From: a virus
DNA length: 64,000 nucleotides
Direction: 5' to 3' (one strand)
Virus record (IMG/VR): IMGVR_UViG_3300048033_000857
Coordinates: 19,338-83,337 of that record
A program made the translations under genes and the position numbers. Positions 2,134 through 28,067 of the stretch are shown here, one piece after another (the first letter of the stretch is position 1; each line of letters opens with the position of its first letter). The notes under the pieces are model-generated. The model ran no database searches. It worked only from the letters and a program-made list of their open reading frames with translations, and had not been told where the DNA came from.

Positions 2134-2791
2134 ATACGGTAGCACACGTTATCCTGGAAAGCCTTTGGCTATGTTAGATGGCGTTCCTATGATAAAGCGT
2201 GTGTATGACGCTTGTACAGCGTCTAAGATACCAACATACGTACTTACTGATGACATGCGTATATACAATCTGTTTGGTCCTAACAAATGTTGGATTGATC
2301 AAACCGATTATGCTAACGGTACTGAACGATGTGCTGGTGCTATTAAGAATGACTTCTTTAGTGAGTACGATCAGTTTGTAAATGTACAAGGCGACATGCC
2401 AGATGTAACAGTTGAAATGATTGAGAAGTGTATTGAAAACTTATCGTACAATACTCTAGTAAGCACAGTATATACAGACATGCCGTTTGAGATGGAGATT
2501 GACCCTAACACAGTCAAAATGATAACAGCATATCCGAGCAAGGCATTATGGTTTGGTAGAGGACTTAAAGGATACGGCGAATGGCACTTGGGTGTATATG
2601 GATACAAGCGCGGCGCACTACTAACCTATCCTAATTTAAAAGTTCCGCAAGAAGAAATTATCGAGCAACTAGAACAGCTACGCTGGTTAAAAAACGGTTG
2701 GCAAATAGTCTGTAGTAGTGTATACTTTAATGGAGTAGAGATTAATTCACCAGAGGATGTAGAAATATGGCAGCAGAAAAACTTAACTTAA
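2102..2791 (+). CDS. kdsB: CMP-KDO synthetase (3-deoxy-manno-octulosonate cytidylyltransferase)
   Basis: IPARYGSTRYPGKPL, GTERC, VNVQGD, HLGVYGY, EQLEQLRWL; GTG start preceded by GAGGAGG. Confidence 0.93.
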   Translation: MTSSAILIPARYGSTRYPGKPLAMLDGVPMIKRVYDACTASKIPTYVLTDDMRIYNLFGPNKCWIDQTDYANGTERCAGAIKNDFFSEYDQFVNVQGDMPDVTVEMIEKCIENLSYNTLVSTVYTDMPFEMEIDPNTVKMITAYPSKALWFGRGLKGYGEWHLGVYGYKRGALLTYPNLKVPQEEIIEQLEQLRWLKNGWQIVCSSVYFNGVEINSPEDVEIWQQKNLT

Positions 2792-3234
2792 AGCAAATAC
2801 TAGGCTGCGTAGATATGAACTACAAAGGCGCCTGGAAAGAATTTACCGACGACGAAAAGAAATCAGTTGGTTTTTGGTTATTAAATAGATACGTAAGTAG
2901 TGTTAGCGGCAGTCGTGCAAAACAAGAACGAGCAGTCTTACGTACAAACAAATACTATAACAAAAATTTTAATGATATCGGTGTTGGAAAAGATAACGGG
3001 CATCAGGAATTAATGTGGCAGCTATTGTGTATGAGTGGTGCAACCGGAGACATACAGTTTCATTCGTACATCGGTCATAAAAGAAAAGGTGAGTCAAACT
3101 CAAAGGCAGTTAAACTTATTGAACAGTTATATCCATATTTAAAAAATGACGAGGTTGAATTACTTGCTAGAATATCTACAAAAAAAGAACTCCGAGAATT
3201 GGCTAAAGAGTATGACATTGACGTCAAACTCTGA
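2767..3234 (+). CDS. putative clamp-loader small subunit (T4 gp62-like)
   Basis: 'FWLLNRYVS...N...H.ELMWQLL' pattern resembles phage gp62-like proteins; replication context. Confidence 0.45.
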   Translation: MAAEKLNLKQILGCVDMNYKGAWKEFTDDEKKSVGFWLLNRYVSSVSGSRAKQERAVLRTNKYYNKNFNDIGVGKDNGHQELMWQLLCMSGATGDIQFHSYIGHKRKGESNSKAVKLIEQLYPYLKNDEVELLARISTKKELRELAKEYDIDVKL

Positions 3235-16493: not shown

Positions 16494-16744
16494 CTTTGCC
16501 CACTACAACGATACACAACACACATATAAAAAAAGAAATCCACTAACCATAACGACAGATACATTGCATAGCCCTGCAACACCCCGTAAATAACGATTTA
16601 CAAAAAGATGGTAGTTTATACTCAACCCACTAGTGTAAAACAGCACTAGCCCACACAAGCCGCAGAGCGGTCCGCGCAAATTCTAGACAGCCGCGAAGCG
16701 GTAAACGCTTTTTGCAAAATTTTTAGCGTTTACCTAAAACAAGC

Positions 16745-16939
16745 TCAATCAATGCACACGGGTGTAAAGCTAGTGCTGTCCGATAGTATCAACAAGCCTA
16801 TGATTCTATCTCTATCCGATTCAAACACAATACGCGATGCGCTTGATTGTGATGTATGGATGCCTCTTAAGAATAGTTCTACTGTAGCACAGTATGTGAT
16901 TGACTCTTTTAGTATAGTAGATGTTGGTTCTGGATTGTA
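16745..16939 (-). CDS. small hypothetical protein
   Basis: ORF MYEVKLVYNPEPTS... in the ORF track (16745-16960); start uncertain. Confidence 0.35.
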   Translation of the reverse strand, partial: YNPEPTSTILKESITYCATVELFLRGIHTSQSSASRIVFESDRDRIIGLLILSDSTSFTPVCID

Positions 16940-17403
16940 TACTAGTTTGACTTCATACATATATAAGACTCTTTAATAAAGTGTATGCACAGTGCGGTCA
17001 GCTAGTCTGCTGAGTGTATATAGCGTATAACGCATATCTGTTGACATGTGTTCAAACTGTGATGCGCACTGTGCATACACTATTACTTATATTAGAGCTA
17101 GCGTGGTTCCACAGTTAAGAGGTTCTGTTTTACATACACTAGAGCTAAAGCTCTAACACGCTACGCTAGTTCGCTTGCGTGTGTTTGCTTCGCTTTACTG
17201 TGTAGCGTAAGTTAGGTCCGAAATGGGTCCTGCAGGGTAAAAATTTTGCTGCGCAGTTTTTTTAGGTGAAGTACTTACAGAAGTGGGGTGGTGATTTTGC
17301 CTCTGTACGTTTTTAAATCATTAAGCGCAGCTAAGTTGTTGTTTTTAAAAGTCTTTTATACCCCACCGTACCCCCGACGCCTCGAGAAAAATTTTTTTTT
17401 TTG

Positions 17404-17441
17404 AAAAAGAAAAAAGACAAGTGTTGCCACTTGCCTTTCTC
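17404..17441 (-). terminator. probable intrinsic terminator ending the leftward early region
   Basis: GAAAAAGACAAGTG-TTGC-CACTTGCCTTTCTC hairpin with U-tract on the minus strand. Confidence 0.5.
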
Positions 17442-17484
17442 TTACATGCAGATCTGAGCCTGCCGTCTACACTCTTATTGTTCT

Positions 17485-17829
17485 CTAGTCTAGTCTGCTA
17501 CCTGCGTAGGCTTTGTCAAAGCCATACTTCTTAAGCACATCAGCTGCTGCTCTAGCACCTGCTTCTAGTGTGTCCACGTTCTGTGTAGGATACTTACTAG
17601 GGTTCCATATCTGGTAAGCGCCGTTGTAGGCTTTGTTAATACCTGCTTGTTTCATAGCACGACCCAACTTGGTGTTGCCTTTAATGCCGAAGATGTCTAC
17701 CCAAGCAAAGCCACAAGCACCCCAGCCACCATTGGGGAAGTGTGTGTTCTCAAAAGCATCAGCTGCTTCATATGCTGCTTCAGTTGCTTCACGTAGTGCT
17801 TGCTTGATTGTGTTTACTGTAATGTCCAT
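17485..17829 (-). CDS. early hypothetical protein
   Basis: CGFAWV motif; own promoter and GAGGGC RBS. Confidence 0.8.
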   Translation of the reverse strand: MDITVNTIKQALREATEAAYEAADAFENTHFPNGGWGACGFAWVDIFGIKGNTKLGRAMKQAGINKAYNGAYQIWNPSKYPTQNVDTLEAGARAAADVLKKYGFDKAYAGSRLD

Positions 17830-17884
17830 AGTGTTTAGCCCTCTTGCTATGTTTAACTTACTCTATTAGTATAGCATCTATATG

Positions 17885-18064
17885 CTATGTGTCAACCCCT
17901 AATGGCTCTGCTTCAACACTTGCTTCTGCCATTTCAAACATTGCATACAGCATGTCAATGCACTTGGCTTCGTTCTTCATGCTCAATGGCAGCTCACGGA
18001 TCAGTTCTTCTACTGTGTCTAGTGTTGTGTCCAATTGCTCAAGTGTGTGTGCTACAGTCTTCAT
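17885..18064 (-). CDS. small early hypothetical protein (59 aa)
   Basis: MKTVAHTLEQLDTTLDTVEELIRELPL..., AAGGAG RBS. Confidence 0.65.
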   Translation of the reverse strand: MKTVAHTLEQLDTTLDTVEELIRELPLSMKNEAKCIDMLYAMFEMAEASVEAEPLGVDT

Positions 18065-18074
18065 AGTGTTCTCC

Positions 18075-18350
18075 TTAGTACAGTTCGTATACAGTTGGTG
18101 CGTTTAGATTGTTTGCGTTACAGTATGCTTCAAGCTCACGGCATACTGTAGCTAGGAAGCGATACTTGCGCTGTGCTTCTGCGTTAGATATCTCTCCATC
18201 ACAGTGCAAGTTCTCTGGCGATAGTTTGCTGTCCAGTGTACGTGCCAAGTCATTCACTTGAGTCTGGCTCAGTGGAAATGTCATTGGAGCTGTGTTGAAG
18301 AATGCGATCCAACGGTTGTTGTCATCGATGAAGTTCTTTAGGTTTTGCAT
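18075..18350 (-). CDS. early hypothetical protein
   Basis: LSPENLHCDGEIS motif; promoter plus GAGGGC. Confidence 0.8.
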   Translation of the reverse strand: MQNLKNFIDDNNRWIAFFNTAPMTFPLSQTQVNDLARTLDSKLSPENLHCDGEISNAEAQRKYRFLATVCRELEAYCNANNLNAPTVYELY

Positions 18351-18433
18351 GTGTTTGCCCTCTATTGCTTAACTGTTATATACAGTATATGATCAATTAG
18401 AGGATATGTCAACCCCTAATTGCAAAAAAGATC

Positions 18434-18625
18434 AAAAAAAAGCCCTAGCATTGGACGAGGGCACATCCTGCTAGGGCTTAGTCTAGGAAGCAGAGCGTGA
18501 GGGCATACGCTGTTCCACTACCTTAGTTACCTTGCAGCTCTAATGGGCTGCTTCGGTGTACACACACTCGGACGAGGGCTGTCCTCCTGTGTGTTCGAAC
18601 TAGCACGAGGGCACATGCTAGTTCT
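18434..18625 (-). ncRNA. putative multi-hairpin sRNA with four GCCCUC loops, ending in an intrinsic terminator
   Basis: Stem-loops 18440-18479, 18486-18516, 18560-18594 and 18597-18624, each with GAGGGC (plus) / GCCCUC (minus) in the loop; A8 at 18434-18441 gives a U-tract on the minus strand. Confidence 0.7.
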
Positions 18626-18640
18626 ACAGTATGCGGAGCT

Positions 18641-19642
18641 CTATGCTCGACGCATCACTGTATTCTCTGCCATTGCTTCCCACTTGGTAGGGAACGCTTC
18701 GGCTAAGTCTGCTACCTTGAGCACTGTACGCAAGCTCAGTTCGCGCAGACGATTTTTATTAATATCTACAAAGTCCATGATGTCCTCTTTGACTTCATCA
18801 TCAATCTTGCGATCGTCTAACATACCATCCGACACCACTTGCTTGATGCGCAGTACTTTGTCCTTGTCCGTATCGATAGTCAAGTCCATGTAGTGGCAAC
18901 GGCTCTCTAGCGCACTCAAGTGCTCACGCAGTTTGCCTTTGACTTTGTCGAACTTCAAGTTGGTAATGAAGATCGCACTTGCTTCGAACTTAAACTTGTC
19001 CGGCACACCTTCGTTGCGCAATTTGAAGCTGTCGGTGTTCCAATGGATCCAACGATTCTTCTTTGAGTCTAGTGCTGCTTTCAAAATATTAAGGCTTAGA
19101 TCATCTTGGAAGATGCTGTCACAGTCATCGAACACAACAACCTTGCCTTTGTCTGCCATGTTAAACAGTTTGCAGTAGAGTCCAATTGGGCTCATCGCAC
19201 CTTTGATCACTTCGTGTGTCTTGCCTGCACCCAGTGTCTCCATCATAGCATAGCGTTCTAGTACTTCTTCTACACCGTGGCTCTTGCCTACACCCGGAGG
19301 GCCGCTAACGATCATTGCTCGAACGCTGCCTTTCTTGACGGCTTTGGTCATATCTTTGAGCATGTCAAACCGTTCGCGGATGCGCTCTACAATCTCAGCG
19401 TCTGACTCTTCGCGTTCGGTTGTCTCGACATTTGCTCCAACCTGCTCGTAACCCTCCGGGCCAGCAACCTTGATCTTGATGTTGCGATCCGGAAACCCAT
19501 TTACTGCCGCGCCGTCGACAGTTACGTAACCTCCTCGAGCTCCTACTTTGAAACCTTCTACTAGTGGAAAGACCATGCCTGTCATGTCTACATCTTTACC
19601 ACGAATCTTATATGTGCCTTCTGTAATTCTAACGTTTGTCAT
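18641..19642 (-). CDS. AAA+ family ATPase (early)
   Basis: GPPGVGKS Walker A, VVVFDDCD Walker B, FITN, ALESRC arginine finger. Confidence 0.85.
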   Translation of the reverse strand: MTNVRITEGTYKIRGKDVDMTGMVFPLVEGFKVGARGGYVTVDGAAVNGFPDRNIKIKVAGPEGYEQVGANVETTEREESDAEIVERIRERFDMLKDMTKAVKKGSVRAMIVSGPPGVGKSHGVEEVLERYAMMETLGAGKTHEVIKGAMSPIGLYCKLFNMADKGKVVVFDDCDSIFQDDLSLNILKAALDSKKNRWIHWNTDSFKLRNEGVPDKFKFEASAIFITNLKFDKVKGKLREHLSALESRCHYMDLTIDTDKDKVLRIKQVVSDGMLDDRKIDDEVKEDIMDFVDINKNRLRELSLRTVLKVADLAEAFPTKWEAMAENTVMRRA

Positions 19643-19681
19643 ATCGCCCTCTTTGTTTCTAACTATACGTATACTATACTA

Positions 19682-19846
19682 TCAGTTTCGAATCCTGTCA
19701 ACCAAAGATTCGTCTGTTTGTTCAACAATTAATTTAGCACCAGAGTTGATTTGGCTGCGAGCAAAGTCACTCAGCTGCTGAGTCTGCTCAGGGAATGTGG
19801 TCATTGCAGCCACACCAATCACGATACCAATTGCTAGTTTGATCAT
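19682..19846 (-). CDS. small membrane-anchored hypothetical protein
   Basis: MIKLAIGIVIGVAAM hydrophobic N-terminus; GGAGG-like RBS. Confidence 0.65.
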   Translation of the reverse strand: MIKLAIGIVIGVAAMTTFPEQTQQLSDFARSQINSGAKLIVEQTDESLVDRIRN

Positions 19847-19847
19847 C

Positions 19848-20189
19848 TTAAAACTCCTCCGGATAACCACGTGTAACTGAGTTACCACGCTTGGGCGACA
19901 CTACCATCACCTGCTCTTTGAGGAAGTCACGATAGTCTGCATCGTCTGGCAGCTTGCTGATCCACTCAGCTTCTGACTGCCACTCTACTGGAAACTCCTT
20001 AGCACCAATGCCATTCTCCATTGCAATTGCTGCAACGAACGCAACAGCATCCTGGATGCGATCCAAGTCCTGGACTAGGTAGTCACTGCCACCCTTCATC
20101 TTCCAGTATGCATTGCCTGAGGAGAACTTACCGTCCTCGCAGTGTGCGCCGTAGTTTTCAAGGAACTGTGTTGTGATTACGAAATTCAT
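19848..20189 (-). CDS. early hypothetical protein
   Basis: TQFLENYGAH...YWKMKGGSDY motif typical of T4-like phage hypotheticals. Confidence 0.75.
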   Translation of the reverse strand: MNFVITTQFLENYGAHCEDGKFSSGNAYWKMKGGSDYLVQDLDRIQDAVAFVAAIAMENGIGAKEFPVEWQSEAEWISKLPDDADYRDFLKEQVMVVSPKRGNSVTRGYPEEF

Positions 20190-20236
20190 TTGCAAACCCT
20201 CTTGCTGTTGCCCTAACTGTTATATACAGTATATGA

Positions 20237-20512
20237 TCACTTGCGCTCGATGTCAACCTTTTTCTGCATGAATTTGGAAATTAATTCCATGTCAGCTTCG
20301 GAGAAGTCGTTGCGGCCTGTGCCAAATGGAGCACCATAATGAGTGAGTGCATTGCCTACATGGCTTAGATCGTTGAGTGTACGCAAGCCGTTATCCGTTA
20401 CACCTTTGAGTCCGTGGATCTTACCGTACTCTTCGGAGAAGTCCATCATCTCGCGTCCAATGGAGATCAGTTTGCGTTCTTGTGCTGTTGCTTCGTAGAA
20501 TGATTGTGCCAT
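20237..20512 (-). CDS. early hypothetical protein
   Basis: MAQSFYE start with GAGGGC RBS; similar to part of 50549-50998. Confidence 0.75.
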   Translation of the reverse strand: MAQSFYEATAQERKLISIGREMMDFSEEYGKIHGLKGVTDNGLRTLNDLSHVGNALTHYGAPFGTGRNDFSEADMELISKFMQKKVDIERK

Positions 20513-20619
20513 GTTTGCCCTCGTTTGTTTAATTGTTATATACAGTATACGCTCACTTAGAACGTTTGTCAACCCCTAATTTGGGAGTCCGCTCCAATCA
20601 TCACATGGATCATCATACA

Positions 20620-20907
20620 TTATGCTGGCTCCTCTTCACCAAAGGTTGCATCATCTAACTCGGCCAACTCTTCTACTTCACGACCTTCTGCGAACAACAA
20701 CAACTCTACAGCCAACATCCGTGCTTGGTGCTTGGTCAACTCTATGTGATTGTGAAAGCCATCTGATGTAGTAGGTTTCTGGAAGCCTCGTGGTTTGCGT
20801 TGAGTTATCTGTATGCAAGTCAATCGATCCTTGCCACCCCAGAAGCGAGTCTGAGTCAATTCGTTCTGTGCTACACAGTCTGGGACGTTTCTTAATTCTG
20901 TTGACAT
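20620..20907 (-). CDS. early hypothetical protein
   Basis: promoter plus GAGGGC RBS. Confidence 0.75.
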   Translation of the reverse strand: MSTELRNVPDCVAQNELTQTRFWGGKDRLTCIQITQRKPRGFQKPTTSDGFHNHIELTKHQARMLAVELLLFAEGREVEELAELDDATFGEEEPA

Positions 20908-20978
20908 TTGGATTGCCCTCCTAATTTCTAACTATACATACAGTATATGATCTAAAGTTGAGTTTGTCAACCCCTAAT

Positions 20979-21176
20979 TTAATCTAAATCACATTCCCAC
21001 ACATCATTGCGGAACTGTGCTCGCAGCGCACCTAGCGGATAGTCTGCGTGTTCGAACAGCATGTAAGGTGCACCATCATAGTCCAACTTGATTGTGTGTA
21101 CAGTGACTTCGTCCATTGGCAACCACTTTGGTGCTTCGATGCTTCCGTTGTATGCTGAGTTGAATACTTTGATCAT
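20979..21176 (-). CDS. early hypothetical protein
   Basis: promoter plus GAGGGC RBS. Confidence 0.7.
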   Translation of the reverse strand: MIKVFNSAYNGSIEAPKWLPMDEVTVHTIKLDYDGAPYMLFEHADYPLGALRAQFRNDVWECDLD

Positions 21177-21242
21177 TGGATGCCCTCCATTGCTTCTAAC
21201 TATACATACACTATAGCACAGGATTCTTTACCTGTCAACCGA

Positions 21243-21315
21243 AAAAGTACGGGGAGGAGCAATTAATTCTCCTACGATGAGGGCGGTCGCTTAGAGTATG
21301 CTACCACTCCCCGTA
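21243..21315 (-). ncRNA. putative small structured RNA downstream of the tRNA cluster, with one GCCCUC loop
   Basis: 9-bp closing stem TACGGGGAG/CTCCCCGTA, internal hairpins, GAGGGC at 21279-21284, short U-tract. Confidence 0.45.
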
Positions 21316-21318
21316 TTC

Positions 21319-21402
21319 TGGTGCCGCCACCGAGACTCGAACTCGGACGCCATAAGCGAGGGATTTTAAGTCCCTTGTGTCTACCTATTCCACCATGGCG
21401 GC
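21319..21402 (-). tRNA. tRNA-Leu(UAA)
   Basis: GCCGCCA acceptor, GGTGGAATAGGTAGACAC D-arm, AGGGA-CTTAAAA-TCCCT anticodon arm, long variable arm, GTTCGAGT, encoded CCA. Confidence 0.95.
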
Positions 21403-21507
21403 TTATGTCCACGCCAACCCCGGGCAAATCTATTAATAGTCCCAGAGCCTGACAGTCGCTATGTGATCTCCTACCTCAGCGTAATCGGTAAGGAACGCTG
21501 TCGTTGT

Positions 21508-21584
21508 TGGCCTGCCCTGCAGGATTCGAACCTGCGACCCACAGCTTAGAAGGCTGTTGCTCTATCCAGCTGAGCTAAGGGCAG
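21508..21584 (-). tRNA. tRNA-Arg(UCU)
   Basis: CTGCCCT acceptor, TAGCTCAGCTGGATAGAGC, ACAGC-CTTCTAA-GCTGT, GGTTCGAATCC, CCA. Confidence 0.95.
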
Positions 21585-21589
21585 TTATT

Positions 21590-21666
21590 TGGTGGGCCCT
21601 CCGAGACTCGAACTCGGAACCTACGGATTATGAGTCCGGTGCTCTAACCAATTGAGCTAAGAGCCC
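21590..21666 (-). tRNA. tRNA with CAU anticodon (likely Ile2/lysidine type, possibly elongator Met)
   Basis: GGGCTCT acceptor paired at 1-72, CTCATAA loop, GTTCGAGT, ACCA end; lacks initiator features. Confidence 0.88.
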
Positions 21667-21674
21667 TTAGGATC

Positions 21675-21845
21675 TTACGATCCTGAAAAAGCAAACTCCT
21701 CTTGTATATCAGATTCAAACTGAGCAACCTTTTGCTCTGCTTCTTCGATCATGCCTAGCAAGATAACATCTGCTAGGTCTGTGTTGTTGTGTATAATGCG
21801 GCGAACGCCTTCAAGTCTTTCGATCAGTTGTAGTTGGTCTACCAT
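21675..21845 (-). CDS. small early hypothetical protein (56 aa)
   Basis: MVDQLQLIERLEGVRRIIHNN..., GAGGGA RBS and promoter. Confidence 0.65.
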   Translation of the reverse strand: MVDQLQLIERLEGVRRIIHNNTDLADVILLGMIEEAEQKVAQFESDIQEEFAFSGS

Positions 21846-21914
21846 TCTGTTTCCCTCTTCGTTTCAACTTATATACAGTATGCACTCGAAAGCGCATACT
21901 GTCAACCATTATTT

Positions 21915-22397
21915 TTAGATATCGTAGCCTTGTGCCTTCAAGCGAGCCACTTCAAGTGTTACCTGAGTCTCCAAGTCGTCGAAGATTGGAAAGCCGTTTG
22001 CATCGTTGCCTACGTTATAACGATCGTGTACAATCCAACCTGCTGCGGTGTGCAGGTAAAAGTATTCGCATCCGCTGTCTGTGTAGTATTCAACCATCTC
22101 CTGCACAGTGTCAAACTCTTGTGCGTCTACACGAGTCTCGCCACGGTCACGTCCGTAAAATACAGTAACGCCTTCTTCCGGAGTGTCAAAGCTGTGTCCG
22201 CTGCCTGGCATTGGAAAAATTTCTTCTGCCATGTAGCTCTGATCGCCTAGCTCTACCATCTGCGCAATCTTGCGAGCCTGTTGGTAGTGCTCTTGCAGCG
22301 TACGGCCTGCGCCTACTACATAGCCATCATAGTGTGAATATTTTGCACGGATCTTGCCTTCTGGTGTTTTGTAACCAATTGCAGCTCTAGTTCCCAT
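21915..22397 (-). CDS. early hypothetical protein
   Basis: MGTRAAIG...YSHYDGY...CEYFYL motif common in phage early proteins. Confidence 0.8.
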   Translation of the reverse strand: MGTRAAIGYKTPEGKIRAKYSHYDGYVVGAGRTLQEHYQQARKIAQMVELGDQSYMAEEIFPMPGSGHSFDTPEEGVTVFYGRDRGETRVDAQEFDTVQEMVEYYTDSGCEYFYLHTAAGWIVHDRYNVGNDANGFPIFDDLETQVTLEVARLKAQGYDI

Positions 22398-22443
22398 TGT
22401 AGTACCCTCTTTGCTAATTTATATATACACTATAACACAGCTC

Positions 22444-22653
22444 TTAGACTGTGTCAACCTCTTTTTCATACATTTCTACAGTTTCTTCAAACTGCTCTGC
22501 AAGCGAACGCAAGCTCATCATCGCAAACTCTTCTGTGATGCTGCCCGCTTCTGCTTCGTCTAGTGTCCGGATGCGTTCTGCCATCATCTCTGCGATTGCT
22601 TTATAGCTGCCACATTCACGTGCTGTCTTCATGCTGTGATCAATAAATGTCAT
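22444..22653 (-). CDS. early hypothetical protein
   Basis: promoter plus GAGGGC. Confidence 0.7.
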   Translation of the reverse strand: MTFIDHSMKTARECGSYKAIAEMMAERIRTLDEAEAGSITEEFAMMSLRSLAEQFEETVEMYEKEVDTV

Positions 22654-22716
22654 TGTGTTGCCCTCTTTGCTAATTTATATATACAGTATATGATCTAACT
22701 GCGGGGTTGTCAACCC

Positions 22717-22995
22717 CTAATTTGCATATTCACGATTCTTTTTGAGCTGCCACTTCTCTAGCACAGGCAAGCCAAACTCGTCCTCGTCTACGCAGACATA
22801 TGCCACAGTCTTCTTGACAATACCGTAACGGTAGCCTCGCATGCCGCACACGCCTTCGCCGCCTACCCAAACCTTGTGTGGGAAGTCTTCGCACATGCTG
22901 ATCGGATCGTCGTTGACACTATACTCGAAATAGTTGCCGGTGTCCCGCTCTACGAAACAACCTATTGGATCTTTGGTGTGTGTCCAGTATGCCAT
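22717..22995 (-). CDS. early hypothetical protein
   Basis: 92-aa ORF coupled to the upstream small ORF. Confidence 0.7.
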   Translation of the reverse strand: MAYWTHTKDPIGCFVERDTGNYFEYSVNDDPISMCEDFPHKVWVGGEGVCGMRGYRYGIVKKTVAYVCVDEDEFGLPVLEKWQLKKNREYAN

Positions 22996-23102
22996 TACTT
23001 GTGCCCTTTCAACAGTGCGTGAATCAGTTTGGCTTCTTTGCCTTTGATGCGAGGATCTTTTTTGATCGCTTCATCTACTGCTTTCTTGTTGTAAGTTGCC
23101 AT
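22995..23102 (-). CDS. small basic early protein (35 aa)
   Basis: MATYNKKAVDEAIKKDPRIKGKEAKLIHALLKGHK, GAGGGC RBS and promoter. Confidence 0.65.
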   Translation of the reverse strand: MATYNKKAVDEAIKKDPRIKGKEAKLIHALLKGHK

Positions 23103-23159
23103 TGGAGCCCTCCGTTTGCCTAACTGTTAATAATACTATAACACCGAAGGGCTCACTTG

Positions 23160-23333
23160 TCAACCTTTTTCTGCGATTTTTCTTCCGATCATGCTGAGTA
23201 GTAGACTGCGAGCAAGATCAACACGACCACAATCGATCTGACGCAACACTGCTTCAAGACTCTCCTGACTGGTGTCATAGCCACCTGCGTTAGGTTCAAC
23301 TGCCCACAGCATAGGGTTCTCTGGTTTACTCAT
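23160..23333 (-). CDS. small early hypothetical protein
   Basis: MSKPENP start overlapping the upstream gene end. Confidence 0.6.
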   Translation of the reverse strand: MSKPENPMLWAVEPNAGGYDTSQESLEAVLRQIDCGRVDLARSLLLSMIGRKIAEKG

Positions 23334-23871
23334 CTGCCATTTCTTCTTCTTTCCACATCTCGAAGTTCTCAACCAGAGCATACTCTTCGTCTAGGCGATT
23401 AAACAAGTCCGAACGCTCGTCTTCTGGCAGCTCGCATTGCTCTGTGAGGTTGTCGCAGTATTCGTCGCCACCTTCGCTATGCCAAAAGCCTGCAAAGTCC
23501 ATACCAGGCTCGTGATAACTTGCCTGGATGTCACAGTTATCCATATCGTCACAGAACTGCTCGTAAGCACCAATAGGCGGAGCCCATGCACTGTCAAACC
23601 AACCAGTGATCTCGGCTGTTCCGTCTTCGTTGTCGATATACTCCAATCCTTCGTCGGAGACATCCCACTTGGTGCCCCAACTGTTGACTCGCCACGAATA
23701 CCAATCTGGACCGTCTGGGTTAGGAGCAGTTGTGCCTTCTAGCTCTTTAGGCATAGGCGCCATTGCATTGAGTAGACCAAAGTCCTCGCCTACGTGAGCA
23801 TCGTCCCACAGTTGCTTGATGGTCTCAGTTGGACCGGAGATTGTGATTGAGTTGTTGCACCAATTTGGCAT
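23326..23871 (-). CDS. DUF1281/YubB ferredoxin-like family protein
   Basis: MPNWCNN, WYSWRVNSWGTKWD, FDSAWAPP, EPGMDFAG. Confidence 0.8.
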   Translation of the reverse strand: MPNWCNNSITISGPTETIKQLWDDAHVGEDFGLLNAMAPMPKELEGTTAPNPDGPDWYSWRVNSWGTKWDVSDEGLEYIDNEDGTAEITGWFDSAWAPPIGAYEQFCDDMDNCDIQASYHEPGMDFAGFWHSEGGDEYCDNLTEQCELPEDERSDLFNRLDEEYALVENFEMWKEEEMADE

Positions 23872-23885
23872 AGTAGTTCTCCCTC

Positions 23886-24068
23886 TTAGTATTCGTCGAT
23901 TAAAAATGCGTCTTCGTCTTCCTGGAAGCGTTCGGAAAGCTCGTTTGCGTCTAGCATGTCTTCAACTTCGTCTGTTGACATATACTTGAGTGCCATAGTC
24001 AGCATGTCTTCTGCTGATACTAGGCCTTCTTCTACCAATGCTAGTGCTGCGTCTCTTGAATCAAACAT
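23886..24068 (-). CDS. small acidic early protein
   Basis: LKYMSTDEVEDMLDANEL; promoter plus GAGGGC. Confidence 0.75.
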   Translation of the reverse strand: MFDSRDAALALVEEGLVSAEDMLTMALKYMSTDEVEDMLDANELSERFQEDEDAFLIDEY

Positions 24069-24219
24069 ATTGTTGCCCTCTTTTGTTTAACTTATACATA
24101 CACTATAGCACGGGTGTATGCAGTTGTCAACCCCTAAATTAAACTTTTTTAAAGTGTGTTACAGCGGGGCCTGCGGGTGTGCGCACTATAGCACAGTGTG
24201 CGCTATAGTGCAAGTTTTT

Positions 24220-24492
24220 TTAACTTTCGTATTTTACTCCTACTAAGCGCAAATAGCGTCCTCCAAATGTAGTATGCACTTTGTCACATCCTACTAGCAG
24301 CTTTAACCATTTGCAGTCACCTTCTGTAAAACGTTCTCCTACAATACCAAAGCACAAGTTGCGTTTAGCTGCATCCTTAGCATTGTCTTTCCAAACTACG
24401 TTAGTCCAACTGTTCCAAAAACTAGCATTCTTTTCTGCTAGTACAGTTGCAACCAATTTACGTGCTTGTTTAGTGTTTAGTTCATAGCGCAT
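24220..24492 (-). CDS. early hypothetical protein (GA/GG-depleted island)
   Basis: GAGGGC RBS and promoter; no prolines. Confidence 0.75.
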   Translation of the reverse strand: MRYELNTKQARKLVATVLAEKNASFWNSWTNVVWKDNAKDAAKRNLCFGIVGERFTEGDCKWLKLLVGCDKVHTTFGGRYLRLVGVKYES

Positions 24493-24568
24493 ATAAAGCC
24501 CTCCATATGCTGTTACGTTATACAAGCACTATAGCATAAACTACAGTGCTTGTCAAGTGTTTTTTAAA

Positions 24569-24922
24569 TTATGTTTCTAAGCTAGCAACTCCGTCGTCTT
24601 GCATGCCTTGCTCCGTAAATGTTACGTCAAAGCCTAGCGCAACACTTATGCTCTCCTCAAAGCCATCGTCTGTGTATATGCGCCAATCGCCTGTGCCGTT
24701 TGCGTTGTGCTCCACATAAATCATTGTGCTAGTGTCGCCATCCTCATATGTCATCTCATGTACTTCCACAGCACTAACACCTACACGCAAGTCACCTGCA
24801 TATCCCCATATGCTGCTGCCGTTGCACTCCGCAAAGCCGTTTGCGTCCCAACGTGTTACAACACAGCTATAGTCTTCGTCTGCGTGTGTTGTACGTGTTG
24901 TTTTGTTTTTTAATGTAAGCAT
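24569..24922 (-). CDS. acidic early hypothetical protein (GA/GG-depleted island)
   Basis: WRIYTDDGFE...TEQGMQ motif; GAGGGC RBS; no prolines. Confidence 0.78.
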   Translation of the reverse strand: MLTLKNKTTRTTHADEDYSCVVTRWDANGFAECNGSSIWGYAGDLRVGVSAVEVHEMTYEDGDTSTMIYVEHNANGTGDWRIYTDDGFEESISVALGFDVTFTEQGMQDDGVASLET

Positions 24923-25014
24923 AGTTTGCCCTCTTTGCTTTGTTAACTTATACATACACTATAGCACAAGTGTGCGCTGCTGTCAACTAAAAAATGCTAA
25001 CAGCAGCAACTTTT

Positions 25015-25365
25015 TTATGCAGCAAGCGCACTAGTATACTTTGCATAGTTGTTGCGTAGTTTAGCATACTGCGGATAAGCTGCGTCTGCTTGCTGCTGTA
25101 GCTTAAACAATAGCACACTGTTAGCACTAGTGCATGTGTAGTTGGGATAGCTTTTAGCTAAGTGTATAAACTGTTTAGCGGGCACACTTGTTAGCTGCAC
25201 TGTGCTTGCATGCACACGGTAGTCGCTTGCTATGCTTGCGTTAGCAAACAAATACATAGTTACGTTTAGCATGTTAGTGTTTTTGTTTACGCTTTTAACT
25301 AGTGCTAAACGCTGTGTGTTTTTATAGTTTACTAGTACTACGCTGTTACGTTTAATGTTTTGCAT
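25015..25365 (-). CDS. early hypothetical protein lacking Glu, Gly and Trp
   Basis: MQNIKRNSVV..., GAGGGC RBS, TTTACA-type promoter. Confidence 0.7.
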   Translation of the reverse strand: MQNIKRNSVVLVNYKNTQRLALVKSVNKNTNMLNVTMYLFANASIASDYRVHASTVQLTSVPAKQFIHLAKSYPNYTCTSANSVLLFKLQQQADAAYPQYAKLRNNYAKYTSALAA

Positions 25366-25457
25366 ATTATAGCCCTCTATGCTGTTAACGTTATATAAAC
25401 AATATAGCACAAGCAGCGCACTTTGTAAAGTAAAAAATGCGCTGCTGTGTAAGTTTT

Positions 25458-25721
25458 TTATGCTAGTGCTTCAAATGCTTCATCTATTATATTATGCGCA
25501 CTTGCGTCACTTGCAAAGCCCTCTTCTTCTGCAAAATCTATGCTGCTGCTACACATAATAACGTCTGTAAGCACATTAACGTTATGTGTTAAAAACACTT
25601 GCACAAGTGCGTCTGCTGTTTGTACGTCTGTTGCTACAACTGTGTTATTTACAGTTACAACAATTGCAGCGTTGCAAGCGTTTAAAAATACGTTGTTTGT
25701 TTTTGTAGTTGTGTTTTGCAT
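25458..25721 (-). CDS. early hypothetical protein
   Basis: MQNTTTK..., CSSSIDFAEEEGF; same leader as its neighbours. Confidence 0.75.
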   Translation of the reverse strand: MQNTTTKTNNVFLNACNAAIVVTVNNTVVATDVQTADALVQVFLTHNVNVLTDVIMCSSSIDFAEEEGFASDASAHNIIDEAFEALA

Positions 25722-25801
25722 ATTATAGCCCTCTATGCTTGTTAACTTATACATACACTATAGCATTAAAAGTGTAGTTTGTAAAGAGAAAAGTTTTGTT
25801 T

Positions 25802-25843
25802 AAAAACAAGCACTTAGCATTTTTCTTGTAAGTGCTTGTTTTT
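25802..25843. repeat. perfect 15-bp inverted repeat of an IHF-box-like sequence
   Basis: AAAAACAAGCACTTA-12nt-TAAGTGCTTGTTTTT. Confidence 0.8.
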
Positions 25844-25848
25844 GTTAG

Positions 25849-26016
25849 TTAAATTTCCTCTAAGCAGCGTTCTACTGTGTCTACTACAACGTAAGCGTCT
25901 GCTGCTGCGTTAAGCAGTACTAGTGCTTTTTGTGCTTCTTCAAATGTAGCAAAAGCACTAGCAACGCCTGTTGTTAAGTTACAAATAAAGTACGGAAAGT
26001 TTACAACGTTTTGCAT
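25849..26016 (-). CDS. small early hypothetical protein (55 aa)
   Basis: MQNVVNFPYFICNLTTGVASAFATFEEA..., GAGGGT RBS and promoter. Confidence 0.65.
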   Translation of the reverse strand: MQNVVNFPYFICNLTTGVASAFATFEEAQKALVLLNAAADAYVVVDTVERCLEEI

Positions 26017-26161
26017 ATTATACCCTCTATGCTGTTTAAGTTATACATACACTATAGCACAAACGGACACAGCTGTCAACTACTAAATGCATTTAAACGA
26101 ACAAAAGAACCCTTTGTTTTCAATAGGTTAGCACCTAAAGATTCCTAACGATATCAAACGG

Positions 26162-26494
26162 TTACATGCTCCAGTATGTCTCGCTGCTAGGTGACATGTA
26201 GTTGGGTGTGTTAACTGGCTCCATAAACTCTTTGCCACCAAACCCCTCTAGCACACGGCGCAGCACTTTCTTCTCTATAGTAGTGTGGAAATAGTCTGCC
26301 TCTGCTATACCATAACGGAACACAGCATGATTCGGATCAGTCTTCAACAACCCCTCTGCCTTTGCAATTCGAGTGACTGCTGCCTTCGCTGCTGCCATTG
26401 TCTTGTAGCTGCAACGGTGATCCGGACGAGCAATACCTGTGCGATCTGGCTTGCCAATAATGTAGGTTGAAGTCTTTTCATATACGTAGTACAT
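26162..26494 (-). CDS. early hypothetical protein
   Basis: YKTMAAAKAAVTR ... NTPNYMSPSSETYWSM. Confidence 0.78.
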   Translation of the reverse strand: MYYVYEKTSTYIIGKPDRTGIARPDHRCSYKTMAAAKAAVTRIAKAEGLLKTDPNHAVFRYGIAEADYFHTTIEKKVLRRVLEGFGGKEFMEPVNTPNYMSPSSETYWSM

Positions 26495-26542
26495 AGTAGT
26501 GCCCTCTTTGTTTCTAACTTATACATACACTATACAGTCATA

Positions 26543-26710
26543 CTAGCACCTTGTCAACCGATATTTTCGTTTGAGTTCACTAAAATTCCCTCTCACATAC
26601 TCATCGAACGTATACGGCTGAGTCTGACGCCATGCTTCCCATTCATCTCGGTTCTCCCAATACTGAGTCCACAGATAGGCACGAAAAGGTTTCAATTTAA
26701 ATTTATTCAT
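26543..26710 (-). CDS. small early hypothetical protein
   Basis: MNKFKLKPFRAYLW..., GAGGAG RBS, first promoter of the early block. Confidence 0.65.
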   Translation of the reverse strand: MNKFKLKPFRAYLWTQYWENRDEWEAWRQTQPYTFDEYVRGNFSELKRKYRLTRC

Positions 26711-26775
26711 CAGTTTCTCCTCTACACTGTAGTATATATAGTATACAACCAAACGACACCTTTGTCAAGACCACA

Positions 26776-27467
26776 AGCAGCGGGGCCTATAGTATGTTCG
26801 AACTGCTCTATAGTGTATAGTTCATCCTATACACGCACTCGACACTATAAGTCATTGATATCATTACACTATACACTATAGTAGAGTCACAGTGCGTGTA
26901 TAGTGTGTATAGTGTGTATAGTGTGTATATAGAGGCCTCTGGCCGAACGGTAGTAAGTGTTTGAATAATAAGGGAATTATATACACACTCAAAACCGGCC
27001 TACAGCAGCGGGGCCTAGTAGGATCTAGAGTGGATTTATGGTAGAGATGGTTCAGGTTTTGGATGAATTGGTGTGAATAAACCATTGATTTTTATACACT
27101 TTGGTGTACAATAACGCTAGGTTTTTATACACCATCTCGCGGTGACGAGAGGCATAGTTTAAATACTTTTCGACCCATTTCTGTACGTCTAATATCTGTA
27201 TGTTTTTGTACACCCTGTTAGATTATTCACGCATAATGCACACACAACCTAGCAGCGGGGCCTCTACACTAGCATGAGAGTGTGCAGCCACGCTCGCACA
27301 AGTGTCTCACTCTACTATAGTGTATAGTGTGTATAGTGCGCTACTGCTACTACTACTACTACTACTGTAGTCTATAGTGTATAGCGTATATGCGTTAACC
27401 GTAGTGTATAGTTCGAACTCATCTATATACGTGCGCATGTATAGTGTGTGATCTAGCAGCGGGGTCT
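26776..27467 (+). repeat. non-coding repeat block: 4 oriented AGCAGCGGGGCCT copies, TATAGTGTG tandem repeats, (CTA)n run, IHF boxes
   Basis: CAGCGGGG(C/T)CT at 26778, 27006, 27253 and 27457 (a fifth at 24162); (TAGTGTGTA)x3 near 26900; CTACTACTA 27347-27366. Confidence 0.8.
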
Positions 27468-27689
27468 TTATCGATATTTGTCTGCTGGATTATCACACAC
27501 TGTACTATCTGATTGTTCGCACAGTTTAAATGTAAGAGCTTTGCGTGGACCACGGGTTGTGTTTAGTGTGACTTCTCCACTCTTTTCATGAAACTCTATC
27601 TTAGTTATAGTTGCACGATCATTGTTAGGACCTACTAATATCTCTTGTCCTAGCTCTAGATTTAGATTGATAGTTCTCAGTGTTGCCAT
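27468..27689 (-). CDS. hypothetical protein (small beta-barrel-like)
   Basis: AAGGAG RBS; TAAATA motif upstream on the minus strand. Confidence 0.7.
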   Translation of the reverse strand: MATLRTINLNLELGQEILVGPNNDRATITKIEFHEKSGEVTLNTTRGPRKALTFKLCEQSDSTVCDNPADKYR

Positions 27690-27734
27690 GGGAAGTCTCC
27701 TTGTTTACTACTAATATTTATTGACACATTCAGC

Positions 27735-27762
27735 TTGACAATCTAAATCTAGACACTATAAT
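27735..27762 (+). promoter_or_regulatory. sigma70 promoter
   Basis: TTGACA-16nt-TATAAT, then AAGGAG RBS. Confidence 0.7.
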
Positions 27763-27785
27763 AAGTAGTACAAAGGAGTGGATAT

Positions 27786-28067
27786 ATGTATGAATCGATC
27801 AATGATGTTGTAGAGGGCACAAGTGTTGCTTGTAAGTTTCGAGTGGAGACTATGTTGGATACCCTAGGTCGTCCGGCACCAAATCTTTCGGACACGCCCT
27901 TGGCAGGGGTTGGAGTCTATGAGAGCTTGGGCGTTATTATGCAGCGTGATCATGCTCAGGGTGTGGTCAAGCTAGAAGACACAGCAAGCAAACGTCAGTT
28001 TGTTGTGGAGTATGCCAACATATGGGACATCGATGACGTTGAGTGGCAGGACCCATTGGATGGCTAG
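27786..28067 (+). CDS. hypothetical protein
   Basis: 93-aa ORF with AAGGAG RBS. Confidence 0.7.
   Translation: MYESINDVVEGTSVACKFRVETMLDTLGRPAPNLSDTPLAGVGVYESLGVIMQRDHAQGVVKLEDTASKRQFVVEYANIWDIDDVEWQDPLDG

Follow-up and report, generated by a model that had tools for sequence, protein, structure and literature searches.

A hairpin array behind an early ATPase gene of uncultured phages carries loops complementary to a ribosome-binding-site tag of the early genes

The locus and its hairpin array

We analysed a row of RNA hairpins that lies directly behind an early AAA-type ATPase gene in a stretch of viral DNA of 64,000 nucleotides (nt). This stretch, called the window below, corresponds to bases 19338-83337 of an 83,337-bp IMG/VR virus record (IMGVR_UViG_3300048033_000857). 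The loops of the hairpins carry the complement of a motif found at the ribosome-binding sites (RBS) of the surrounding early genes. As the completeness of the record was estimated by CheckV at only 23%, the source phage appears to be very large. The genes of the window include a primase, a DnaB-like helicase, a ribonucleotide reductase, a subtilase and three tRNAs, and a minus-strand module of small genes, with a raised G+C content, extends over positions ~16500-27900. The features at the locus are given below in window coordinates, in the order of transcription; ORF stands for open reading frame and 3'UTR for 3' untranslated region.

19646-19701, minus strand: promoter (TTGACA-17-TATAGT, 19701-19673, from a consensus scan) and leader of the ATPase gene
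18641-19642, minus strand: early AAA-type ATPase gene, 333 amino acids (aa), phrog_1250 (function unknown), with a weak match to PF00004/PF13191
18641-18643, minus strand: stop codon of the ATPase gene, from the ORF list
18433-18640, minus strand: 3'UTR of the ATPase mRNA, an RNA of ~208 nt with five hairpins, four of them with a GCCCUC loop, and an intrinsic terminator at its end
18597-18624, minus strand: hairpin 1, with a 10-bp stem and loop GUGCCCUC; motif at 18607-18612, with an unpaired probability of 0.83 in the fold
18560-18594, minus strand: hairpin 2, with outer stem ACACACA/UGUGUGU, inner stem GGAC/GUCC and loop AGCCCUC; motif at 18574-18579, unpaired probability 0.95
18529-18557, minus strand: middle hairpin GCAGC/GCUGC between hairpins 2 and 3, without GCCCUC
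18483-18526, minus strand: hairpin 3, with stem AGCGU/ACGCU extended by GGAAC.../...GCUUCC and loop AUGCCCUC; motif at 18499-18504, unpaired probability 0.90
18440-18479, minus strand: hairpin 4, the terminator, with stem AGCCCUAGCA/UGCUAGGGCU, inner stem GGAU/GUCC and loop GUGCCCUC; motif at 18457-18462
18433-18440, minus strand: U8 behind hairpin 4 (A8 on the plus strand), read from the sequence
18351-18412, minus strand: next early cassette directly past the terminator, with promoter TTGACA-17-TATACT at 18412-18384, GAGGGC at 18357-18362 and ATG at 18350
18075-18350, minus strand: ORF downstream of the array, from the ORF list
21236-21322, minus strand: fifth GCCCUC-type loop, behind tRNA-Leu, in the inner hairpin GCGA-CCGCCCUCA-UCGU (motif at 21279-21284) of a terminator-like outer stem that is followed by U5

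The initial annotation of this region had described four minus-strand stem-loops with GCCCUC loops, two of the loops reading alike and the last hairpin being followed by U8. All of this is borne out by the sequence and by a minus-strand fold of 18430-18650, in which the four motifs had mean unpaired probabilities of 0.83-0.95; the two similar loops both read UGUGCCCUCG. In the same fold the five hairpins are preceded by a small hairpin at the ATPase stop codon. The array had been placed in the 3' region of the ATPase gene. It does adjoin the 3' end of that gene, but the ORF spans 18641-19642 on the minus strand and the array therefore lies outside it, in the 3'UTR.

The 295-nt intergenic RNA of the minus strand folded with -110.2 kcal/mol (z = -5.95), and none of 200 shuffled sequences was as stable. 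The hairpin at 18440-18479 has the make-up of an intrinsic terminator, that is, a G+C-rich stem-loop followed by a U-run; a simple terminator scanner missed it because of the internal loop in its stem. The array is positioned as in small RNAs (sRNAs) that derive from 3'UTRs, with the stop codon on one side and the intrinsic terminator of that transcript on the other. A consensus scan detected no near-consensus promoter between the ATPase promoter and the array, and the only match inside the 3' part of the ATPase gene agreed at 9 of 12 positions (19084-19055).

Two of the smaller hairpins were also inspected. The middle hairpin, which lacks the motif, is kept in the nearest relatives (loci L006, L009, L045 and L064). 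Its loop region GCCAUUAGAGC is complementary at 10 of 11 positions, possibly by chance, to GCUCCAAUGGC, the start region of a leader type GGAGGGCUCCAAUGGC that is found for example at 23107. The hairpin at the ATPase stop (18636-18648) has lost the motif in the window (GAGCAUAGAGCUC).

The GAGGGC tag of the early leaders

GAGGGC was found 26 times on the two strands of the window, as compared to 9.9 +/- 3.4 expected copies, and none of 100 shuffled sequences reached 26. Four plus-strand copies, which start at 18457, 18499, 18574 and 18607 and lie within 156 nt, belong to the array. Exact GAGGGC was also found 3-8 nt ahead of the ATG in 14 minus-strand early leaders between 17838 and 26506 (motif starts at 17838, 18357, 19646, 20517, 20915, 21182, 22660, 23107, 24075, 24498, 24928, 25372, 25728 and 26501). 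Each of these leaders follows a near-consensus promoter, TTGACA-17-TATA(C/G)T, and the earlier proposal that GAGGGC(A) serves as the RBS of the surrounding early genes is confirmed by these sites. The leader of the ATPase gene itself carries GAGGGC(G) at 19646-19651, 3 nt ahead of its ATG. A few additional leaders of the window have the variants GAGGGU or AGGGC. Two other copies are placed differently: the one at 21596-21601 lies inside the 3' part of tRNA-Met (21590-21666, minus strand) and has no leader, and the one at 25518-25523 has no ATG close by.

Seven minus-strand promoters that agree with 11 of the 12 consensus positions lie in 17400-21700. The 70-nt promoter-leader of the cassette at 18351-18412 recurs, in part, at four other places of the contig. 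The terminator-like structure directly behind tRNA-Leu occupies ~70 nt of 21236-21322, and its loop exposes CGCCCUC, which is complementary over 7 nt to GAGGGCG, the variant in the ATPase leader (19646-19652).

GAGG is an ordinary Shine-Dalgarno (SD) core, and ribosome binding, going by the anti-SD, would not explain the conserved GC(A) that follows it. In clade A, the group of relatives with the motifs of the window, AGGGC was present in 244 and GAGGGC in 181 of 347 unique promoter-proximal early leaders, and in 214 of the 244 tagged leaders AGGGC was located 3-8 nt ahead of the ATG. Two copies of the tag were found in 21 leaders, e.g. AGGGCAAAGGGCA, and some leaders have AGGGCA at the 5' end together with a separate AAGGAG SD. 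Both arrangements indicate that the tag is an element in its own right, beyond the SD.

Loop presentation and stem variation in relatives

With the ATPase protein as query, 63 loci were retrieved from IMG/VR. After leaving out eleven loci with identical downstream sequence and one that was too short (L063), 52 unique cases remained, including the window. The array was present in 44 of them, with 1-5 GCCCUC sites each and 127 in total, about 0-240 nt past the ATPase stop. In minimum-free-energy (MFE) structures 115 of the 127 sites fell into hairpin loops, as compared to 227 of 6664 control hexamer positions (3.4%). The commonest loop has 8 nt, with GCCCUC against the 3' arm. A stem finder placed stems of at least 4 bp at 83% of the motif sites and at 31% of random positions.

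It had been expected that the stems would covary in related phages, and they do: across the 44 unique loci the stems are unrelated, whereas the loop core is invariant in all 127 sites. In a motif-anchored alignment with fixed register and without structure selection, 52.9% of the cells were paired, as compared to 41.2% after shuffling, and none of 500 shuffles reached the observed value. The covariation score in this alignment was 0.348 versus 0.185, and slid registers paired 31-46% of the cells, lower in every case. A T-run of at least four followed the last motif hairpin in 32 of the 44 unique loci, and the MFE of the sense strand was lower than that of the antisense strand in 28 of 44 (Wilcoxon p = 0.010).

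Array and tag were present or absent together. Tagged leaders made up 249 of 343 in the 44 loci with an array and 0 of 14 in the 8 unique loci without one, in which the ATPase is about 47% identical. One locus (L038) stands in between: it has a single clear loop, and of its eight leaders one is tagged. In another (L011, positions 2189-3080) an insertion of ~440 nt shifts an otherwise intact four-hairpin array, nearly identical to the array of L008, to +449 to +869, which indicates that the array persists even where it does not adjoin the gene. In IMG/VR, 34 stretches contained the exact 16-mer of the commonest hairpin. Ten were chance matches inside high-GC coding sequence and 24 belonged to this phage group, namely 20 contigs already in the set and 4 new ones with the ATPase gene upstream.

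Many relatives have an extra first hairpin around the ATPase stop codon, which lies in the loop, e.g. GAGC-AUAGCCCUCAC-GCUC (loci L006, L012, L014-L021, L024, L026-L028, L031, L038, L039, L043 and L044). With the stop codon inside the loop, a terminating ribosome would unfold this first loop. Lone hairpins of the same kind as that behind tRNA-Leu were seen elsewhere in the early regions of relatives (L012 at -3169, L045 at -3850 and L011 at +449).

Co-switching of loop and leader motifs between clades

With an ATPase profile search 80 further loci were collected, and 75 of them were analysed after L103-L107 had been left out as repeats of earlier contigs. Motifs were discovered without a preset motif, by taking the commonest 6-mers just upstream of ORFs and then the positions of their reverse complements. 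This brought out a second pair of motifs, and in total three clades with different pairs were distinguished. In clade A the loop (U)GCCCUC is paired with the leader GAGGGC(A), and in clade B the loop UUCGCUCC is the reverse complement of the leader GGAGCGAA.

Clade B consists of two parts. In clade B1 (L156, L160, L171 and L182; ATPase 63-64% identical) the ATPase 3'UTR has two hairpins with the loop GAUUCGCUCC, the second of which is the terminator, and the early leaders on the same contigs carry AGGAGCGAA. In clade B2 (18 loci; ATPase 52-58% identical) the leaders again read GGAGCGA. Here a single hairpin, CCG-AUUCGCUCC-CGG, closes the ATPase operon; it lies past small ORFs and ahead of the terminator, about 600-930 nt downstream of the ATPase gene. 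Sixteen loop columns are invariant across the 18 sequences. From these sequences RNAalifold retrieved the CCG/CGG stem and a portion of the terminator but nothing more, as MAFFT misaligned the variable outer stem, and its result was used solely for the 16 invariant columns.

In clade C (L134, L135, L142, L148 and L159; ATPase about 50-53% identical) the 3'UTR has a hairpin with a 27-nt CU-rich loop. This loop is complementary to two leaders, through UCCUCUGU to ACAGAGGA in that of a 231-aa gene and through UCUCACUC to GAGUGAGA in that of the ATPase gene itself. The first hairpin loop in three clade C loci also matches AGUGAGAA.

The matrix of motifs across clades is diagonal; L137 and L143 were left out of it, being near-identical to L134 and L142. 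The counts in leader windows were:

Clade A: AGGGC in 263 of 729; other tag, GAGCGA, in 2
Clade B1: GAGCGA in 14 of 53; other tag, AGGGC, in 1
Clade B2: GAGCGA in 49 of 267; other tag, AGGGC, in 4
Clade C: GAGTGAG in 3 of 57 and CAGAGGA in 3 of 57; other tags in none

The loop motifs were likewise restricted to their own clade, in 45 of 45 loci of clade A, 22 of 22 of clade B and 5 of 5 of clade C. The expectation that the loops should track the early RBS in relatives was thus confirmed, as loop and leader motifs had switched together in sister clades and were again complementary.

In a midpoint-rooted tree of 117 distinct ATPase proteins the clades A, B and C were separate. Clade A formed one group of 40 rows. 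Its sister was a 9-row AT-rich group without the element, followed by B1 and then B2, and clade C fell into the opposite half. For the 45 rows marked 'none' the scan had covered the three known motifs only, and the label 'A' of L165 stems from one chance GCCCTC in a coding region, not from an array. The sister group of clade A (L128, L130, L131, L133, L136, L140, L141, L150 and L174) has neither hairpins nor a tagged leader. At least L130 and L136 have a nearly leaderless gene next to the ATPase gene on its downstream side, with a start ~6 nt past a TATAAT box. In general, hairpins were absent as well from clades without a leader tag.

The calculated loop-leader duplexes of the three clade pairs were alike, with -11.1 to -12.4 kcal/mol (about -12 kcal/mol for 7 bp in clade A), as compared to -3.7 kcal/mol for the 4-nt SD core alone. 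It is very unlikely, judged from the sequences, that the loop would be the exact complement of the leader motif by chance in three clades with three different sequences; the chance per clade was approximated by dividing the number of loop 6-mers by 4096. Base pairing would predict just such a result.

Proposed function and alternative explanations

Based on these comparisons, we consider pairing between loops and leaders to be well supported and very probable. We propose that the ATPase 3'UTR is a multivalent anti-SD RNA which pairs with early leaders and most likely represses their translation, a reading to which we assign a probability of roughly 0.6. The four (U)GCCCUC loops of the 18433-18640 RNA would base-pair with the GAGGGC(A) SD of the early genes, a tag that consists of the SD core GAGG and a phage-private extension GC, often GCA. 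A bound loop would cover the 30S site, so that translation of the whole early class would be turned off, possibly with faster mRNA decay, and genes with plain AGGAG sites would be spared. With the SD core inside the tag and the AUG 3-8 nt further on, occlusion of the ribosome site with repression is the most likely outcome. As the array RNA is itself made from an early promoter, the result would be a delayed and self-limiting off-switch. We infer that the 3'UTR acts either after release as a discrete small RNA or within the mRNA.

More tentatively, and with slightly less than even odds, the system could be an orthogonal translation code, in which one temporal class of genes has a private SD tag and a multivalent RNA carries the anti-tag, the two having been rewritten at least twice and changing together each time. 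As the code differs between clades, it may also act between co-infecting phages, silencing a superinfecting relative with the same tag and sparing others. Such silencing would be the lytic-phage analogue of the heteroimmunity of P1 and P7 that is brought about by c4 RNA.

Several observations weigh against the proposed function or limit it. The motifs are invariant within clade A, so the co-variation rests on two or three switches between clades, and in clade C on few unique leaders (3 and 3 of 57 windows). Within clade A the flanking bases of loop and leader were not correlated per locus (Spearman rho -0.03, -0.19 and +0.30 in 31 loci, none significant) when the base before GCCCU was set against that after AGGGC, or GCCCU[C] against [G]AGGGC. 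Pooled over the loci, the flanks show mirrored frequencies (loop: U 76, A 33, C 18, G 0; leader: A 214, U 39, G 10, C 2), to which base composition could have contributed in part. A generic search of each UTR for 7-mer complements of its own leaders was mixed in outcome. Significance was reached in the window, L122, L112, L134 and L135 and not in L013, L043, L156, L148 and L048, and the test is inflated by U-runs that pair with A-rich leaders. A double-stranded DNA motif read in opposite orientation would also be expected to co-vary, and the presentation in hairpins is the only point that contradicts it. The excess of G.U over A.C pairs, when both were allowed in stems, was modest (110 versus 75) and too weak alone as strand evidence; the strand call therefore leans on the terminator and on gene orientation. 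The sign of the effect is a further point, as repression, although most likely, is deduced from the position of the tag alone. The transcript evidence consists of assembled contigs, which show neither ends, strand nor level. A search for sequencing runs gave six with small shares of 0.05-0.07, and the four RNA runs, from four studies, had contigs that were mostly 85-95% alike and therefore come from relatives. The bin 18408-18551 was little covered in three RNA runs, a comparison based on contigs only and on libraries that possibly contain DNA.

The pairing might be real and yet serve a purpose other than repression, such as stabilising or protecting the leaders (e.g. from an endonuclease that cuts the SD), tethering, or another timing. 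All evidence for pairing fits this explanation equally well, the computed results are neutral as to the sign of the effect, and some leaders are tagged at the 5' end far from the SD, where occlusion would not occur. We nevertheless regard it as unlikely. The position 3-8 nt before the AUG is the classical site at which sRNAs block 30S binding, and the tag has this position, with the SD core included, in 214 of the 244 tagged leaders. Moreover, the leaders fold weakly, with a tag accessibility of 0.67 versus 0.71 for the rest, and thus have no inhibitory structure that pairing could open.

Quite unlikely, in our view, is an action in cis only, in which the 3'UTR of the ATPase mRNA loops back to the SD of that mRNA and the other tags are incidental. 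Autoregulation of this kind is documented for icaR in excerpts of PMC3868564. The ATPase leader does carry GAGGGC(G) at 19646-19651, the clade C loop matches the ATPase's own leader over 8 nt, and the array is linked to the ATPase gene in all three clades. However, there are 2-5 loops per array for a single SD of its own, the tag is common to about 70% of the early leaders, the extra loop behind tRNA-Leu has no protein gene of its own, and the clade B2 hairpin stands about 800 nt and two ORFs behind the ATPase gene.

The hairpins could also be sites for a protein, either an RNA-binding regulator or termination factor on the loops or a DNA-binding protein on double-stranded GAGGGC. Identical loops on variable stems are a hallmark of protein-binding RNA arrays too, and an inverted double-stranded motif would change together at both places. 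An RNA-binding protein, however, is unable to read both a sequence and its complement, so the complementarity in three clades would be a coincidence. A DNA site needs no inverted-repeat flanks, yet 115 of 127 sites are in loops of unrelated stems, and the last hairpin also serves as an RNA terminator. The loops GUGCCCUC, AGCCCUC and AUGCCCUC contain no GGA, the loop element of CsrB/RsmZ sponges, and are therefore not of the CsrA type. Taken together, protein sites are an improbable explanation.

Very improbable are plain structural hairpins, that is, terminators or 3'-end stabilisers whose loops are alike by duplication and have no role in pairing. The last hairpin is a terminator, and stacked 3' hairpins are known to shield mRNAs from exonucleases. 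Duplication would have kept the stems as well, whereas the stems are unrelated around an invariant loop core in 127 sites, and a switch of the leader motif goes along with one of the loop motif.

A plus-strand transcript whose GAGGGC loops act as a sponge for a GAGGGC-binding repressor, the alternative offered by the initial annotation, is hardly credible: the plus strand of the intergenic region folds well too (-104.9 kcal/mol, z = -4.86), but the consensus scan found no near-consensus plus-strand promoter facing the region, the U-run past the array exists on the minus strand only, 28 of 44 loci have the more stable fold on the sense strand, and the region lies between two minus-strand genes, with minus-strand promoters, in a minus-strand module.

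Comparison with known systems

The phages of this group are large, uncultured and marine. No match was found by blastn against 50,697 GenBank phage records, either with window positions 17800-20000 or with the clade B and clade C loci. The nearest cultured relatives at the protein level are the PA5oct-like jumbo phages, with about 46-54% identity. The ATPase is 46% identical to that of PA5oct-like isolates over an aligned 76% of its length, and the helicase is 49-54% identical. The gene next to the PA5oct ATPase gene begins 44 nt later, and no hairpin array is located there.

An Rfam search had been suggested as a check, and it returned no such family. At gathering thresholds, only the three tRNAs were found in the whole window. 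With E <= 10, the array region gave sub-threshold matches only, which were to sRNAs with C-rich loops. The best was to mmgR/suhB (21.7 bits versus a cut-off of 41), the others included a toxic sRNA of Betaproteobacteria (18.4 versus 50), and none amounts to membership. The C4 model did not match the array at the gathering threshold or at E <= 10.

In architecture, the cuckoo/CcsR RNAs are the nearest known system. According to excerpts of PMC4615179 and PMC8034643, these RNAs have 2-4 adjacent hairpins with a shared C-rich, anti-SD-like loop motif, CCUCCUCCC, on highly variable stems, and the Rhodobacter CcsR RNAs derive from the ccaF1 3'UTR and are released by RNase E. They are described there as alphaproteobacterial, cellular and stress-induced, encoded beside a DUF1127 gene and directed at scattered host mRNAs. 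The phage array shares with them the adjacent hairpins, the single loop motif, the variable stems, the 3'UTR origin and the linkage of gene and RNA array through evolution. It differs in its (U)GCCCUC loops, in its presumed targets, which form a promoter-defined class with a private tag, and in its setting, a virus record with an AAA-type ATPase as neighbour. The differences in loop motif, host and neighbouring gene indicate that the array is not a member of the cuckoo/CcsR group. The co-switching of motif pairs seen between the phage clades is not described for cuckoo/CcsR in these excerpts.

Among phages, the nearest case is the c4 RNA of P1 and P7. In the part of PMC12197685 that deals with c4, complementary sequences, likely in loops, pair around an RBS of the RNA's own mRNA and block its translation, and the specificity differs between relatives, as seen in the heteroimmunity of P1 and P7. 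The loops of the phage array are similarly complementary to RBS-overlapping sites, at 14 of its own leaders, which is a likeness in working and not in membership. Whereas c4 is described there as acting on one operon, ant, in temperate immunity, the presumed targets of the array are about 15-20 separately promoted early genes, and the array is multivalent and borne by a 3'UTR.

In the icaR mRNA of Staphylococcus aureus, as given in the excerpts of PMC3868564, a C-rich motif of the 3'UTR pairs with the SD of the same mRNA. The phage 3'UTR motif is likewise complementary to the SD of its own mRNA (GAGGGC of the ATPase, 19646-19651), with intramolecular pairing being only putative. In contrast to the single motif and single own mRNA of icaR, there are 2-5 loops and many other tagged mRNAs. 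For RNAIII and other Gram-positive sRNAs with C-rich loops, repeated UCCC loops were proposed to start binding at target RBSs (excerpts of PMC4615179). These would recognise the generic host SD, whereas the phage loop matches the SD core together with a phage-private extension.

An RNA of a phage that is aimed at a whole tagged class of genes was not found in the full-text literature searched or in the excerpts of a 2025 review of phage sRNAs (PMC12197685). Multivalent anti-SD RNA as such is known; what is new is the phage-private, co-evolving pair of tag and anti-tag that would govern a temporal class of genes.

Temporal control in lytic phages is known mainly for transcription and for proteins such as RegA and RegB. 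In T4, RegB and RegA are early phage proteins that inactivate the translation of early messages via their ribosome-binding regions, and in the phages studied here the agent would be an RNA instead of a protein. If the proposed function is correct, RNA-only control of a class of genes through a private ribosome-site tag would add a new level to the timing of phage genes. A natural orthogonal SD/anti-SD pair would then also be at hand in three roughly iso-energetic versions, with possible reuse as translation switches. For uncultured phage genomes a simple rule may follow, by which 3'UTR loops that mirror a leader tag point to early genes and regulatory RNAs.

Early promoters and leader hairpins

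Many of the early promoters (18384-18412 and others, e.g. 20544-20572 and 20942-20970) read TATACTGTATATAACAGTTA. Their arms ACTGT and ACAGT form an inverted repeat over the -10 element and the likely start of transcription. By its sequence this repeat looks like an operator for a dimeric repressor, and there may thus be a transcriptional shut-off beside the RNA. The 5-nt spacing of the repeat presumably does not fit a LexA box.

Display of the tag in the loop of a leader hairpin, as in loop-loop kissing, was considered as a general feature and dropped, as it was seen in only 68 of 246 leaders. In four relatives (L029, L034, L045 and L025) some early leaders read GCAAGGGGCAUUGCAC-AUG and have the tag GGGGCA in the loop of a small GCAA/UUGC hairpin. 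From this sequence, a loop-loop contact is possible for the GCAAGGGGCAUUGCAC subclass of leaders.

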